This document shows positions 1,658-60,277 of a DNA stretch of 64,000 nt, in pieces. Source of the stretch: Escherichia phage vB_EcoM_JN03. The number at the start of each line of letters is the position of its first letter. Position 1 is the stretch's first letter. The DNA is taken from sequence record OR885871. The stretch is one strand, 5' to 3'. The notes below the pieces were generated by a model. That model had not been told where the DNA came from and made no database searches. It saw only the letters and a program-made list of their open reading frames with translations. The translations under genes and the position numbers were made by a program.

Positions 1658-1831
1658 ATGAACTGGGATCATCTGTGGTTGGCTATCAGTGTCTTTATGT
1701 TCTTTGATGCGTTGTTGGGAACGTACGAGATGAGTAGGGAGTCCAGAGTCGGGGTGATGGTTTGTTGTTCCCTTATCGGCGTGGTATCCCTTTATTTCGC
1801 TATTGGGTTTGCCGCAGAGATCTTCAAATGA
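1658..1831 (+). CDS. small membrane protein (57 aa, below ORF-track cutoff)
   Basis: ATG 3 nt after upstream stop, RBS AAGAAGGA; two hydrophobic segments; stop overlaps next ATG (ATGA). Confidence 0.4.
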   Translation: MNWDHLWLAISVFMFFDALLGTYEMSRESRVGVMVCCSLIGVVSLYFAIGFAAEIFK

Positions 1832-2157
1832 AAGTTGTCCACTTCAAGAAGGAACCATACGACGTCTACATTGGCCGTCCTGGCAAATGGGGAAACCCGT
1901 TCGAGGTCAAAGACCACGGGCGGGGAAACTGTATTGAGTTGTTTGAAGACGACTTGTATGTGCGCCTGATTGAAGGGGATATCACCGAAGATGAACTCCT
2001 TGAATTAGATGGAAAGACCTTGGGATGCTGGTGTAAGCCGCGCCCATGTCATGGAGATGTTTATGTCAAAGTGATCGGTCGTATTAAACTATTCCGTAAG
2101 TTGGGTAAATCTTTTACTGAATATTTGAGACAAACATATGTCAGAAGAGAAAGATGA
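1828..2157 (+). CDS. DUF4326-like protein
   Basis: YDVYIGRPGKWGNPF and LGCWCKPRPCHGDV motifs; start moved to ATG 1828 coupled to upstream stop. Confidence 0.45.
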   Translation: MKVVHFKKEPYDVYIGRPGKWGNPFEVKDHGRGNCIELFEDDLYVRLIEGDITEDELLELDGKTLGCWCKPRPCHGDVYVKVIGRIKLFRKLGKSFTEYLRQTYVRRER

Positions 2158-50265: not shown

Positions 50266-50822
50266 AACACAATTCCTAAATTTGTGTATAATAACTCAGC
50301 CAGGGTTACAGGACGCTTGAATTGTTCCCAACTGCAGTTCAGGTATTCGCGCTCTTCGCGAATATTGTCGTGAAGATGACCATGGATATTATACGCCCAA
50401 CGGTCTAATTGATAAGGAACATGTGTTGTCAACACACGGCCAACAGGCGTGTCACGTTCATACATAGCGCCGAAGGAGCTAATCCAGCCGTCCAGATACA
50501 GAGACAACAACATCTTAAAGCTGTCATGGTTGCCTTGTGCCACCTTGATGATAAAGTTCGGACGCCAGTCATCGGGAACGGGGCGTCGCTTAAACTCATC
50601 AATGTTTCGCTTGGCACCCTCCCGCATCAGGCGAATGAACCCTTCAGCCCCGATGAAGCATATATCACCAGCCAGTTCAAGAACGTCCCGAGACTTCAAC
50701 CCCTGAAAGATACTGTCAATGACCGCAGCGTCATGGGCTTCCTGTGTATCAAATCCACGCGGTTTAAAGACCTTCTTATGCCCAAGATGAGTGTCACCAA
50801 GGTGCTTTACAATTCCCGCCAT
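50262..50822 (-). CDS. calcineurin-like metallophosphoesterase
   Basis: GDTHLG, GNHD and GHLH motifs; RBS GAGGAA before ATG 50822. Confidence 0.55.
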
Positions 50823-51163
50823 TATGGTTTCCTCAGCCATTCTAAAATCGGCACGTCCACAAACCCTTTATGCCAACGATGCGGTTTGTGACCTCTATTA
50901 TGTTCGAGCAAACACGTGTCTGGTGGGACACTGAAGTGGATGCCTTCGATGTCGTAGTAATGTCCGTCAATCAGAGTATACACATGACCTTCGATCTGAC
51001 TGTAATGGATCTCTGCTTGAGGATACACATGCTTCAGAACCAGAGCAACCTGATAGCACTTTCCGTTCTTCCCAACATACTCAACATCCACCTGTTGTGG
51101 GAAGACGTCTTTGATAAGATTTATCAATCTCGTGATGTCATTTACAACAACCGAACATTTCAT
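50822..51163 (-). CDS. hypothetical protein
   Basis: Coupled ORF, His-rich. Confidence 0.35.
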
Positions 51164-51165
51164 CT

Positions 51166-51828
51166 CTATGATAACTCATGGCGATGTCGAACACACGCAG
51201 GGCAATCACAATTCTTTTTCAAAATTGGCAATTCACACCATGTCATTAAGTCATGTATTGGGGACATGTGATGATAGAACCAAGATTTCTTGAGACTAAT
51301 CAATGGATATAAAATTTCAATAGGTCTTTCCCCGTCTCTGGTCATCATGTTGTACCCTTCAATGACTTTATTAAAGGCGGGTATCCAGTGTATTGCGTCA
51401 TCGCCGTTAACATATGCCAAGATATACGTGGAAGGCAAGCCGCTGCCTTTAAATTGCGTGTTTAATAACCATATCGGGGCTTGTGCTAAACAAGCGCGAA
51501 AACCACCGTTCGGGACGTTGATGCTACTGATAGGTTCTTGATGATGTGTCCAACGATACATGAGAAGTGGGGCATTTTTATTAATCCAGTTGTGTATTTT
51601 ATTCCTCGCCCAATTTTCGCGCTTAGATTTAAATTTATTATTTTCGAGGTGGCAATACACAGTATGAACTGAATATCCTTTCGATAACAACCAAATCAAC
51701 ATGTATGTGCTATCCACCCCACCAGACCAGAACAACGTCACTTCTTGATTATTCTGCGGCAATGGAGCATCCCCTTGAAGAACACGGTATACAAAATCAC
51801 AATCAGATACTGAGACAACAATTTCCAT
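51166..51828 (-). CDS. PP-loop ATPase, QueC-like
   Basis: PP-loop SGGVDST; C-terminal Cys cluster C-x9-CDCPAC. Confidence 0.4.
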   Translation of the reverse strand: MEIVVSVSDCDFVYRVLQGDAPLPQNNQEVTLFWSGGVDSTYMLIWLLSKGYSVHTVYCHLENNKFKSKRENWARNKIHNWINKNAPLLMYRWTHHQEPISSINVPNGGFRACLAQAPIWLLNTQFKGSGLPSTYILAYVNGDDAIHWIPAFNKVIEGYNMMTRDGERPIEILYPLISLKKSWFYHHMSPIHDLMTWCELPILKKNCDCPACVRHRHELS

Positions 51829-52563: not shown

Positions 52564-53196
52564 TCATCCTTCCACCTTCAGCCCCATCAGGTCTTCCATG
52601 GTTTTCTGAATGCGTAGCCAGTCAAGCGCCGCATCATAACGAGGGTCATGATAGATCATACCTTCCAGTTCCCACGCCTTGATACCAGCATATCGATCCT
52701 GCTGCCCAATACCCTTCAGCCAGCTTACGATGTCAAATGTGTGGTGATAGTCCCAAGGTTCGTTGGAATCTTGCTTACACGTCACCTCAATGATGTGCTG
52801 AGCCTTGCGTAGGTCAAACAGATTCCTATCACACCAGTCAACCGATCGCGGGTCGATCCCAAGGCGATGGCATCCCTTGCGAATTTCATCGGCCAATTTG
52901 AAAATAGAAATATCCTTGTCGGTCGGATATAGACTGATAGCTCGGGCGGCGTCGCACGGGTTGCGTTTACCTGTACCCAGCCACCATTCCACAGTGCCCT
53001 GGTCTTTCACACGGCCAAGTTCAATCTGTTCTTTGACATTCAGTTTGATAAATGTCGTGCGCTCTACAACAAGCTGCTGAAGAGTATAACGCTTGGTCAG
53101 GTCGGCGATAGTCTGTGCCCAAGACAACATGACAGCATCATCCCAACGACCGAGAGTTTCGCTATCAGCGACGGCCAAGAAATTAGATTTATACAT
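52564..53196 (-). CDS. DnaQ/DEDD-type 3'-5' exonuclease-like protein
   Basis: AVADSETLG (DxE-type) and YHHTFD (H-x4-D-type). Confidence 0.4.
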   Translation of the reverse strand: MYKSNFLAVADSETLGRWDDAVMLSWAQTIADLTKRYTLQQLVVERTTFIKLNVKEQIELGRVKDQGTVEWWLGTGKRNPCDAARAISLYPTDKDISIFKLADEIRKGCHRLGIDPRSVDWCDRNLFDLRKAQHIIEVTCKQDSNEPWDYHHTFDIVSWLKGIGQQDRYAGIKAWELEGMIYHDPRYDAALDWLRIQKTMEDLMGLKVEG

Positions 53197-53533
53197 CAGT
53201 TTCCCCTGCTTTCTCTAAAAGGAGTTTCAAAGGATATGTCCCACAAGCGGTGGCATACTCGACTTTGAAATATGAATTATCGTTCATGGCGAAATTGCGA
53301 TGTGGGAAATATTCCCCGTCATCCAACCCGCCTAATCCCCCGCCGACGCGATATTGTTTTAACTCGACTTCGCCGCCATAACGGAGTTGGGCATATAGGC
53401 CGATAGGAGCGCGAACATAATGCTCCAGCCATACCCAATTTCCATCGTGTAAACGTGTAGGGATAAATGCAAAACGCACCTTGGGATGAAGAACGGCTTT
53501 GGCGAGCATCTCTTCTGTTATTTCACGCTTCAT
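53189..53533 (-). CDS. hypothetical protein
   Basis: Coupled ORF. Confidence 0.35.
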   Translation of the reverse strand: MKREITEEMLAKAVLHPKVRFAFIPTRLHDGNWVWLEHYVRAPIGLYAQLRYGGEVELKQYRVGGGLGGLDDGEYFPHRNFAMNDNSYFKVEYATACGTYPLKLLLEKAGETDV

Positions 53534-54150
53534 CCAATACCTTCCTCTTCGATGATATCTTCTTCACTAGCGACGACAGAGATTCCGTGGTCTACCATCT
53601 GGGAAAGTTCTTGTAAATCTTGTTCAAACCCGTCACCCTGTCGGATATAAAAGACGGGTACGACACGACGCCTGGTATCTTCGAAGATAGTCTCCGCGAT
53701 TTTATTAATCTGACTCACCACGTGAAACAGTTTTAATCCACCGATGCCACAGCCGATGGCGGGTAAACCAACATAGACTGTTTCGTCAGTTTTTGCCTCA
53801 ATGATATCGTGAACTTGTTCAAACATAATCTGAACTGAACTGATAATGGAAGGCATGCGTGCGTTAGGACCAGGGTAGAACTGAGTATACAAATTGAATC
53901 CCCAGACACCAGTGTCATGATCAAACGCATAGGACATGTTCCCCAAACGTTGTTCCGGACCACGTTCATCTAATTGGTCGGCTCGGTAAATTTCTGGGAA
54001 ATCTAATCGAACATGGTTGGCGATACCTGCGCCCATCACAGACCAACAATTTGCGCCATGAGCGAAAGCATTGATGAGATTAAAACTCGTAGCGGCTTTC
54101 AGTAAATCGCCGTTTGTGATAACATATGTGGTCATGCGTAACGTCTCCAT
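53530..54150 (-). CDS. macro-domain (ADP-ribose binding/hydrolase)-like protein
   Basis: INAFAHGANCWSVMGAGIA and GLPAIGCGIGGL resemble macro NAAN...GGGV and P-x-I-G-x-G motifs. Confidence 0.4.
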   Translation of the reverse strand: METLRMTTYVITNGDLLKAATSFNLINAFAHGANCWSVMGAGIANHVRLDFPEIYRADQLDERGPEQRLGNMSYAFDHDTGVWGFNLYTQFYPGPNARMPSIISSVQIMFEQVHDIIEAKTDETVYVGLPAIGCGIGGLKLFHVVSQINKIAETIFEDTRRRVVPVFYIRQGDGFEQDLQELSQMVDHGISVVASEEDIIEEEGIG

Positions 54151-55055: not shown

Positions 55056-55415
55056 CTAATCTATCCATATTTCAGGTTCGGGGATATCAACCATCTCCAC
55101 CGTTTGATTCTTTAATTCGTGGAAACAGTCACCAAGGAATTGTAATTTACCATCAGTCAAGAACAAATGACAACGACTCGCCGGATCAGAATGATTCACC
55201 AACAGACTAGGAGTGAAAGTCGGTGATTCGAGATCGTGATTCCATTGCCATATTGGGCCAGGCATTTGCCCTGAAATGCGATAAGGATGAAGCATATTAC
55301 ATCCAGGACAATGAAAATATATGGAACCACCCATTGATAATAATTTTGGAGTCAATAATTTTGACATATCACGCCTCCACTTCTTCATCAGGATTGTATG
55401 GGCGTAATTCTCCAA
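55056..55415 (-). CDS. zinc-binding hypothetical protein
   Basis: CPGC...H...C..H pattern. Confidence 0.35.
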   Translation of the reverse strand: MENYAHTILMKKWRRDMSKLLTPKLLSMGGSIYFHCPGCNMLHPYRISGQMPGPIWQWNHDLESPTFTPSLLVNHSDPASRCHLFLTDGKLQFLGDCFHELKNQTVEMVDIPEPEIWID

Positions 55416-58985: not shown

Positions 58986-59564
58986 TTATAGACCAAATTT
59001 ACCACGCCACTTTTCAACTTTGTGTTCTATGGCATGTTCTACTTTAACGATCGTGTTGATATGGTTTTGATTATACCCACACGCCAATTTGGCAGTATTG
59101 CGTATCAGATTTGAAACCAGGTCCACCATATTATCTTCTGAACGTTGAGGTTGGTTCAGTAAACGAGTGATGCGGCCTTTGTAATGATTAACCATCGCAA
59201 GATATTTGTCTATAGTTTCAACACCACTACAGAACCAATAATCTTCCAACGTATGTTGGCTGAGATCAGTTGTGTGATTGGCCGTAGCCAAAGCAAACAC
59301 CATGGAGTCAAAGATTTCTTCTTTGGTCATAGACCCATGTTGTTGAACTTGTTGATAATCCACAACATATAATAGATCCAGAGCCGAGATGATAACGTCC
59401 GCCACTTCACCGTTCAGGGGTTCGGATGCAGCGATTCCATAAAGCACATCTGATAGTTCACAAGACTCTTCCACGAGTTTGCAATATACAAACACAGGAG
59501 AACGATTAGGATCGCGCTGGCTGAGTTCATATGATGTGTTGAAGATAGTTTTTAGAAAATTCAT
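58986..59564 (-). CDS. MazG-like all-alpha nucleotide pyrophosphohydrolase, tentative
   Basis: LVEESCELSD...EVADVIISALD resembles EExxE...ExxD metal-binding pattern. Confidence 0.3.
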   Translation of the reverse strand: MNFLKTIFNTSYELSQRDPNRSPVFVYCKLVEESCELSDVLYGIAASEPLNGEVADVIISALDLLYVVDYQQVQQHGSMTKEEIFDSMVFALATANHTTDLSQHTLEDYWFCSGVETIDKYLAMVNHYKGRITRLLNQPQRSEDNMVDLVSNLIRNTAKLACGYNQNHINTIVKVEHAIEHKVEKWRGKFGL

Positions 59565-60061
59565 TTCAAATATCCTTCTAGACGGAAGCGGTTAATATGC
59601 TGTATGATAAAATCCATAGAGTTTTGAAAACTGTATTTCCCCTGATGTTCATAAGCGTGAATCAGGGGAAGACGGCTGTGGGCCAATTGGAATCTCAACT
59701 TGGATGGCATTGTCAGCAATTTTTGACTCGTCGCTGCGATAATGTCTCGTTTAAATTTGGGATCATCAGGGGACAATACAACGATGCGTGACTTGGCCAG
59801 GGTTTGTCCAAATTGCTTGGCGTCGTTCCCGTAAAGACTACGCAAGTCGTCGTGGCGATATTTTAGCCAATACCAGTAGCCTTCTAACGAATTGAAATTA
59901 CCATCAACAGTATCCATGGGATGGTATGCAAAATGGGAAAGGAATCTGCCTAGTTCTGTGCGGCTTCGACTGTATATGTTGTAATGGGTCTTGCCTTCAC
60001 TATCCGGCGTCATACGTTCTTTTGGAACATTGAGTAATGGGAGCATGATATAGGGTCTCAA
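59561..60061 (-). CDS. NADAR (YbiA-like) domain protein
   Basis: GRFLSHFAYHPMDTVDGNFNSLEGYWYWLKY matches YbiA-type G-F-SNF...DG...SEHYFQA-KF pattern; C-terminal LIHAYEH. Confidence 0.5.
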   Translation of the reverse strand: MRPYIMLPLLNVPKERMTPDSEGKTHYNIYSRSRTELGRFLSHFAYHPMDTVDGNFNSLEGYWYWLKYRHDDLRSLYGNDAKQFGQTLAKSRIVVLSPDDPKFKRDIIAATSQKLLTMPSKLRFQLAHSRLPLIHAYEHQGKYSFQNSMDFIIQHINRFRLEGYLK

Positions 60062-60085: not shown

Positions 60086-60277
60086 TCAGATCTTTTTGTA
60101 CGCTTTCAAAGCACTAATAACCGAGACGCCGCCAAATAGAACTAACAATATGAATCGTTCCATCCTGAAATCAGGAAGGGAAAGCAGTCCCACAAGGCTG
60201 TCTAAAGCAATCATGAACGTTACTCCAGTCAGCATGCCCAACTTAAAGGAGTTGGAACCTCTCTTGCAACGTAACAT
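60086..60277 (-). CDS. small membrane protein
   Basis: 63 aa, hydrophobic; same strand as neighbours. Confidence 0.3.
   Translation of the reverse strand: MLRCKRGSNSFKLGMLTGVTFMIALDSLVGLLSLPDFRMERFILLVLFGGVSVISALKAYKKI

Follow-up and report, generated by a model that had tools for sequence, protein, structure and literature searches.

A divergent NADAR-superfamily protein encoded by Escherichia phage vB_EcoM_JN03 and related Ackermannviridae, a candidate counter-defence enzyme

Introduction

It is well established that phages encode NADAR proteins and that these proteins can counteract the DarTG1 defence. T4 AdfN (gp30.3), AdfN-Bas32 and AdfN-Bas60 remove guanine-linked ADP-ribose or restore phage growth on DarTG1 hosts (PMC11257639, PMC11825919, PMC11125620). 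The key residues of NADARs are a Glu (E43 in P. nicotianae, E88 in E. coli C7) and a Lys seven positions further on (K50 and K95, respectively) (PMC11543638). This +7 Lys contacts phosphate and adenine (K50 / K95 / K43 series), and both E36A and K43A inactivate T4 AdfN (PMC11257639). The third catalytic position is a Glu in P. nicotianae (E125) and in the YbiA type, an Asp (D171) in DarT1-linked NADARs and a His in phage gp30.3 (PMC11543638); a histidine in phage NADARs is stated in both PMC11543638 and PMC11125620. A second Lys (K75 in P. nicotianae, K115 in E. coli C7) is needed in vivo to counter DarT1 (PMC11543638). In this study, we analysed a minus-strand gene of the Kuttervirus (ViI-like) Escherichia phage vB_EcoM_JN03 (sequence record OR885871) that lies within positions 59561-60061 of a stretch of 64,000 nucleotides, hereafter the window. 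An initial annotation had called its product NADAR/YbiA-like from an FLSxF...S.E motif.

NADARs have been reported in 27% of myoviruses by Iyer et al., whose main text names no Ackermannviridae protein (PMC9503650). Our literature searches for NADAR or DarTG in connection with Ackermannviridae, Kuttervirus, CBA120 or Vi01 turned up nothing relevant, and a 2024 review of the Ackermannviridae mentions neither ADP-ribosylation nor anti-defence. One homologue of the JN03 protein had already been annotated as YbiA-like. What appears to be new is the NADAR identity of an otherwise unannotated Ackermannviridae gene, from a lineage that the current Pfam and NCBIfam models miss.

Results

The JN03 protein is a divergent member of the NADAR superfamily, homologous to AdfN and YbiA, and has a NADAR fold. 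The top two matches found with Foldseek support this identity. At the profile level, hhalign aligned 20 target-family sequences with a 31-sequence gp30.3/AdfN alignment over 135 columns (96.4%, E 1.1e-9). A larger profile of 188 family sequences matched both the AdfN family (97.7%, E 2e-12) and the YbiA family (96.2%, E 2e-9) over the full length. The positive control, AdfN against YbiA, gave 97.4% with E 1.6e-11. Because these scores are comparable, the clade is about as distant from the AdfN and YbiA families as those are from each other. Among characterised proteins, the closest relative of this clade (PHROG 652) appears to be T4 gp30.3/AdfN. In addition, one relative carries the JGI name 'YbiA (DUF1768 family)', and the homologue from phage Moabite, which is 36% identical, was independently annotated as an N-glycosidase through an HHpred match to 2B3W. 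Altogether, the motif-based call is backed by Foldseek, by full-length profile-profile alignment and by the catalytic positions described below.

The hidden Markov model (HMM) search against NADAR/DUF1768 that had been proposed as a check gave no hit for the target. For the target, neither NADAR (PF08719) nor Phage_30_3 (PF08010) was matched in Pfam, and nothing was matched in NCBIfam, even at E<=1; a PHROGs scan returned phrog_652 alone, labelled 'unknown function'. Searches of PDB sequences, run with phmmer for the protein and with hmmsearch for the 20-sequence profile, found no NADAR and gave noise at E 0.3-0.6. The gp30.3 profile itself reached YbiA weakly in the same sequences (E 0.0024). 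Distant relatives of the target did give sub-threshold Pfam matches to Phage_30_3 (E 5e-4) and NADAR (E 6e-4). For PF08719, this was 1 of 20 relatives, with 20.5 bits against a cut-off of 35.1. For PF08010, relatives scored 18-27 bits against a cut-off of 36, while T4 gp30.3 itself scored 237.5 bits. Since the profile-profile match to the YbiA family is significant, we read the failure of PF08719 as a limit of HMM sensitivity and not as absent homology. Taking the lack of a significant NADAR profile hit as decisive, as the initial annotation had suggested, would have led to the NADAR idea being discarded wrongly.

The catalytic positions (Table 1) are numbered in the 161-aa protein that starts at the ATG at 60046. 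Conservation was counted in the 188 family sequences, and each denominator is the number aligned at that position. The Glu at position 55 is conserved in 185/185, and His occupies position 130 in 184/185, just as H123 of T4 AdfN is invariant in the alignment used for comparison. Position 77 holds 180 Lys and 3 Arg among 185 sequences, its correspondence to the second Lys of known NADARs being based on the motif (K-x-x-G-R) and hhalign, not on superposition. By contrast, position 62 is a Lys in just 30/185, essentially the Ackermannviridae, with Gly, Ser or Leu elsewhere. The target has Q81 where most family members have Arg or Lys. The clade also has a signature of its own, comprising an invariant EGYWYW, K109 (186/186) and H21/N23/Y25. 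By these alignments, the JN03 protein has the complete AdfN-type set E55/K62/H130, and the wider clade departs from it at the +7 Lys. The expectation that conserved catalytic residues would be kept was borne out for E55, K62 and H130, the latter being the His variant of the third position.

The gene is real and under strong purifying selection. By tblastn it is present in 529 phage records, 392 of them with at least 80% query coverage, and dN/dS between pairs of alleles from five Ackermannviridae falls in the range 0.04-0.15 wherever dS is unsaturated. The open reading frame (ORF) on which the initial annotation was based, which encodes 166 aa from a TTG and holds the peptide GRFLSHFAYHPMDTVDGNFNSLEGYWYWLKY, therefore stands as a conserved gene, although its start at 60061 probably does not. 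The ATG at 60046 is the more likely start because homologues are nearly all 160-162 aa long and the starts annotated in the three genomes inspected for this purpose, LIMEstone1, maane and Matapan, are equivalent to it (MLPLLN...). In the FEC14 RefSeq record (L002:8562-8918), the gene is annotated from an internal Met as 118 aa, so that the conserved N-terminal strand and the FLSHF motif are lost. The product is labelled 'hypothetical protein' in most of the records inspected and 'virion structural protein' in one, from Klebsiella phage FKP14. We rejected the latter label, which appears to be a pipeline category, and no packaging is claimed. The NADAR gene is not mentioned in the main-text passages searched of a Vi01-like virion proteomics paper, the table of which was covered in part.

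The clade extends well beyond the Ackermannviridae. Of 1.84 billion cluster representatives searched with the family profile, 1858 matched at E<=1e-3, 448 of them at E<=1e-30, and the clade comprises about 1,800 clusters at 50% identity. We counted Pfam domains among 71 long family members and found DUF4326 in 12, Macro in 9 and SLOG-type domains in 14 (DprA-like in 6, YAcAr in 5 and YpsA in 3). DUF488-N3a was found in 5, an Rv2179c-like exonuclease in 2 and a canonical NADAR in 1. P0164 is a triple fusion of NADAR, macro and DUF4326 domains. P0222, a metagenomic protein of 1415 aa, combines a canonical Pfam NADAR (10-143), a clade NADAR (549-697) and DUF4326 (1185-1274), which suggests that the two NADAR types may not be redundant. 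For a further member, P0028, a CTP_transf_like (NadD/NadM-type) gene is found two genes away.

JN03 encodes the macro and DUF4326 partners as stand-alone proteins. The initial annotation had noted them and proposed that three ADP-ribose-related folds may be present in the window; all three are there, and they are joined by domain fusion in other phage proteins. The macro-domain protein belongs to PHROG 335 (E 1.5e-73) and has no Pfam Macro match. With phmmer, it matches the solved macrodomain chains 5m3i (E 1e-4), 7omu (5e-4) and 5m31 (3e-3), as well as the macro domains fused to the NADAR clade in P0213 (E 3e-11) and P0176 (1e-7). We take 5M3I, 5M31 and 7OMU to be macrodomains of DarG, the DarT2 antitoxin, a literature search for confirmation having returned nothing. 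The segment 'PTKKHW' of 5m3i is aligned to 'YPGPNAR' of the JN03 protein. Presumably, this segment holds the catalytic Lys of DarG, which then appears to be absent from the JN03 protein. The Vi01 annotators named the protein a 'putative ADP-ribose binding protein' (PMC10892097). The DUF4326 protein is homologous to the fused DUF4326 domain of P0220 (E 1e-19) and of eight others (phmmer). Its homologues are fused N-terminally to the NADAR clade in at least 9 metagenomic proteins, and its gene sits just after a 541-aa ORF.

Several other minus-strand genes of the window were also noted. The product of a dexA-like exonuclease gene (52564-53196; PHROG 255), two genes from the macro protein, has a weak Pfam match to the Rv2179c-like 3'-5' exoribonuclease (E 0.026), a domain that is also fused to the NADAR clade; phmmer did not link this exonuclease to the Rv2179c-like/NADAR fusions. 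A PP-loop ATPase (51166-51828) has a short QueC/ThiI-like N-terminal match only and is called 'QueC-like' in FEC14. The remaining two are a YunG-like protein (50822-51163; PF24591, E 1e-43) and a DUF6527 protein (55056-55415; E 2e-13).

Over the 5 kb around the NADAR gene, the window shares 99.3-99.5% identity with the genomes of Salmonella phage S8, Escherichia phage FEC14, BSP101 and SFP10, all of the genus Kuttervirus (Ackermannviridae). The gene belongs to a minus-strand block with the order rIIA, rIIB, Ig-domain structural protein, histone-like protein, small membrane protein, NADAR gene, MazG-like gene and the large and medium subunits of topoisomerase II. After several small ORFs, the block continues with the macro-domain protein, one further ORF and the dexA-like exonuclease. 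The gene content of this rIIA-rIIB-topoisomerase block resembles the T4 early region. A promoter and terminator scan of 58.8-60.9 kb performed no better than shuffles, and the histone-like protein has no Pfam or NCBIfam match.

The initial annotation had also described the NADAR gene as ATGA-coupled to a MazG-like gene, and the junction bears this out. The stop codon TGA (59561-59563) overlaps the ATG of the MazG-like gene (59562-59564), and all five Ackermannviridae examined share the same AAATGAA junction. The MazG-like product has no Pfam or NCBIfam match, its assignment coming from the PHROG 1247 profile. The synteny of the two genes is conserved across the Ackermannviridae, and the pairing was not seen outside this family in the homologue neighbourhoods inspected. 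A homing endonuclease lies between the MazG-like gene and topoisomerase II in LIMEstone1 (L012:4136-4909) and maane (L013:1782-1901), and none is found there in the window. Directly upstream of the NADAR gene, a small ORF of 63 aa (60086-60277, minus strand) is preceded by a strong Shine-Dalgarno sequence (GGAGGTGA). Its equivalent is annotated as a (two-TM) membrane protein in LIMEstone1 and maane; Matapan and FKP14 have a small ORF annotated at this position, and FEC14 and CBA120 only a 42-aa version.

Table 1. Features of the NADAR locus and its candidate partners in the window
Feature	Coordinates	Strand	Evidence
Stand-alone DUF4326 protein, candidate functional partner	1828..2157	+	Pfam PF14216, E 3.2e-24
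Stand-alone macro-domain protein, candidate functional partner	53530..54150	-	PDB sequence matches, PHROG 335
MazG-like pyrophosphatase gene, 192 aa, translationally coupled downstream neighbour	58986..59564	-	PHROG 1247 'MazG-like pyrophosphatase', E 1.2e-40
ATGA overlap of NADAR stop and MazG-like start	59561..59564	-	Sequence; AAATGAA junction also in LIMEstone1, maane, Matapan, FKP14
NADAR-superfamily coding sequence, 161 aa, probable extent	59561..60046	-	ATG 60046 to TGA
H130 codon CAC, motif L-P-L-I-H-A-Y, predicted third catalytic position	59657..59659	-	Aligns to T4 AdfN H123 and Glu of YbiA 'KLVEH'
K77 codon AAG, motif G-x-x-A-K-x-x-G	59816..59818	-	Motif match to P. nicotianae K75-G78-R79, E. 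coli C7 K115
K62 codon AAA, Lys seven after Glu	59861..59863	-	Aligns to T4 AdfN K43 and YbiA K55
E55 codon GAA, predicted catalytic Glu of S-x-E-G-Y-W-Y-W	59882..59884	-	Aligns to T4 AdfN E36 and YbiA E48
First five codons of the 166-aa ORF from its TTG, probably untranslated	60047..60061	-	ORF listing takes first possible start; homologue lengths fit ATG

The alleles of the NADAR gene are mosaic. That of the Kuttervirus maane (L013) is 88% identical to the allele of the Limestonevirus LIMEstone1 and only 64% identical to window positions 59561-60046. The Matapan allele (L014) is nearly identical to the window over roughly its C-terminal third, its N-terminal half having diverged. These patterns suggest recombination at the locus, both within and between genera. 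The deposited CBA120 sequence carries a 1-nt deletion in a G-run (L006:1120-1183; window 59639-59642, CCCC on the plus strand and GGGG in the gene). The deletion puts the codons after 'EHQ' out of frame, so that the C-terminal helix is replaced, and CBA120 orf012 stops 14 nt ahead of the MazG-like start, with no overlap. This parallels RB69, in which adfN has a natural frameshift that removes the terminal helix and makes the phage DarTG1-sensitive. The CBA120 deletion could equally be a homopolymer sequencing error.

Discussion

On balance, we favour for the JN03 protein the role of an orphan, antitoxin-like ADP-ribosyl N-glycohydrolase that removes guanine-linked ADP-ribose from phage DNA and thereby acts against DarTG1. 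A host DarT1-type ADP-ribosyltransferase would attach ADP-ribose to the N2 of guanine in phage DNA. The NADAR protein would then bind the DNA-attached ADP-ribose and cut the N-glycosidic bond between ribose and base using E55, K62 and H130, while K77 would assist in binding phosphate or DNA. ADP-ribose would be released and replicable DNA restored, so that the orphan 'antitoxin' would neutralise the abortive infection triggered by DarTG1. We infer that its substrate is guanine-linked ADP-ribose in DNA, that it is expressed early and that it acts in anti-defence. Removal of ADP-ribose from DNA seems the most likely activity because of the E/K/H set, the conserved K77, the orphan status of the gene and its position in the rII-topoisomerase block. 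The anti-DarT1 role is further strengthened because the three phage NADAR lineages tested so far all behave in this way (PMC11257639, PMC11825919, PMC11125620).

Several observations weigh against this interpretation. The +7 Lys, essential in the E. coli C7 NADAR and in T4 AdfN, is kept in so few family members (30/185) that the clade as a whole may bind its substrate differently, even though the target itself retains this residue. Q81 of the target replaces the Arg that contacts the pyrophosphate (R79 in P. nicotianae). Fusions of the clade to Macro, SLOG, DUF4326 and DUF488 domains are frequent, and Iyer et al. read this pattern as processing of soluble ADP-ribose derivatives (PMC9503650). 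Finally, the presence of a canonical and a clade NADAR in P0222 suggests that the two may have non-redundant substrates.

The enzyme could instead have soluble ADP-ribose derivatives, not DNA adducts, as its substrates and serve as one step of a pathway shared with the phage macro and DUF4326 (rhodanese-phosphatase-like) proteins. We regard this as rather unlikely, though as the main competitor. Candidate substrates would be immune signals or toxic by-products, such as cyclic ADP-ribose isomers, ADP-ribose-1''-phosphate or ADPr>P. This idea was put forward for phage NADARs by Iyer, Burroughs, Anantharaman and Aravind (PMC9503650). It is in line with the domains found in the 71 long members (12 DUF4326, 9 Macro, 14 SLOG-type, 5 DUF488-N3a), with the homology of the window macro and DUF4326 proteins to fused domains and with the P0164 triple fusion. 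The CTP_transf_like gene two genes from P0028, the loss of the canonical +7 Lys in most of the clade and the joining of a canonical NADAR with a clade domain in P0222 also fit. However, the proposal predates the biochemistry, and all NADARs tested since, including three phage lineages, hydrolyse base-linked ADP-ribose on nucleic acid (PMC11543638, PMC11125620, PMC11825919, PMC12945103). Moreover, a Macro fusion is equally expected of a dual anti-DarT1/anti-DarT2 enzyme, and K77, whose counterpart in E. coli C7 (K115) is required against DarT1 only in vivo, is nearly invariant. A related and more tentative suggestion, which we think doubtful, is that the clade consists not of redundant copies of AdfN but of NADARs with a different substrate, working as a module of a three-enzyme pathway (NADAR, macro and DUF4326 phosphatase-like proteins). 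Such a pathway would erase an adduct or immune signal that derives from ADP-ribose but is not plain guanine-linked ADP-ribose. We entertain it because of the +7 Lys loss in most of the clade, P0222 and the recurrent Macro/SLOG/DUF4326 fusions, the partner domains of which all have stand-alone homologues in JN03. As a variant of this idea, the enzyme might be specialised for adducts on DNA hypermodified with 5-(2-aminoethoxy)methyl-dU (5-NeOmdU).

The substrate might also be a nucleic acid carrying another mark, such as cytidine- or adenine-linked ADP-ribose, RNA or marks set by a phage transferase, or the enzyme might be tuned to the 5-NeOmdU DNA of Kuttervirus, so that DarT1 is not the main opponent. 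Some NADARs also remove cytidine-linked ADP-ribose (PMC12945103), T4 AdfN works best within its own group of phages with modified DNA (PMC11257639) and Kuttervirus DNA is hypermodified (PMC11721090). The invariant EGYWYW, K109 and H21/N23/Y25 signature of the clade is likewise consistent with a target of its own. We nevertheless deem this improbable: activity on guanine-linked ADP-ribose is universal among the NADARs tested, and no phage ADP-ribosyltransferase was found in the genome, which was not searched exhaustively. A YbiA-like small-molecule N-glycosidase that works in nucleotide metabolism with its MazG-like partner, clearing aberrant ribosyl or nucleotide intermediates or serving thymidine hypermodification, is very improbable in our judgement. 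E. coli YbiA does cleave N-glycosides of the riboflavin pathway (cited in PMC11543638), five Ackermannviridae keep the ATGA coupling with the MazG-like gene and the Moabite homologue adjoins a gene annotated as dUTPase. Yet the pairing of NADAR and MazG was not seen beyond the Ackermannviridae in the neighbourhoods inspected, the Glu that defines YbiA is a His here and the fusion partners are ADP-ribose-related, not nucleotide-biosynthetic. YbiA itself also removes guanine-linked ADP-ribose in vitro (PMC11125620). That the fold is catalytically dead and serves as a binding protein or decoy could be argued from Q81 in place of the phosphate-binding Arg and from the strong divergence from the canonical family, with no Pfam match. 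This is the least probable explanation of all, given that E55, K62, K77, K109 and H130 are all present, that E55 and H130 are invariant over about 185 diverse sequences and that dN/dS is so low.

The anti-DarTG1 role that we favour would have practical implications. Ackermannviridae (ViI/CBA120-like phages) are in wide use against Salmonella, E. coli O157 and Klebsiella, both for biocontrol and for therapy, and the intact AdfN-like active site leads to the concrete prediction that these phages resist DarTG1. If this is true, counter-defence by orphan NADARs reaches a fourth, very divergent phage lineage. In addition, the fusions that link NADAR, macro and DUF4326 domains offer a tractable system to address whether DNA adducts, soluble signals or both are the substrates of phage ADP-ribose enzymes.

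Compared with the systems described so far, the JN03 protein differs from DarG1 (E. coli C7; G. lovleyi, PDB 8BAT) in that no DarT1 gene is adjacent, its neighbours being the MazG-like, small membrane protein, histone-like and topoisomerase II genes. No ADP-ribosyltransferase gene was found among these neighbours, no scan of the remaining genome having been aimed at such enzymes. The protein also lacks the long N-terminal extension of DarG1, with about 17 residues ahead of the first conserved strand, and has a His at the position of the catalytic Asp D171. It departs from YbiA (PDB 2B3W) and the canonical NADARs (PF08719) in carrying this His for the YbiA-family Glu and in lacking the 'D-x-x-W-G' segment after that strand, where the alignment has a 6-residue gap. 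The JN03 clade shows exactly the fusions of the SLOG-Macro-NADAR-DUF4326 network of Iyer et al. (PMC9503650), but in JN03 the NADAR, macro and DUF4326 proteins are encoded by unlinked stand-alone genes at 59.6, 53.5 and 1.8 kb of the window.

We also considered whether the JN03 protein belongs to the lineage of AdfN-Bas32 (T5-like) or AdfN-Bas60 (Vequintavirinae). Using published primer sequences, we took the homologues of these enzymes from phages slur09 and phi92. Their scores against the YbiA profile are 99.4% and 92.9%, respectively, and against the JN03 family only 58% and 8%. A shared lineage was therefore rejected. Because these homologues are canonical and distinct from the JN03 clade, the latter would be a fourth phage NADAR lineage beside the three with tested members. 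T4 gp30.3/AdfN remains the best point of comparison, despite an identity of only about 23-24% in the hhalign alignments, the clade's own signature (DGxTHxNxYS, EGYWYW, PLxHxY) and different neighbours, which are ligase and gene 30.2 in T4 and the MazG-like and topoisomerase II genes in JN03. Both are single-domain orphan phage NADARs of about 150-160 aa without the N-terminal extension of the DarG1 type, both are encoded by large myoviruses with modified DNA, in the company of replication-type genes, and they share the Glu/Lys(+7)/His arrangement (E55/K62/H130 in JN03, E36/K43/H123 in T4).

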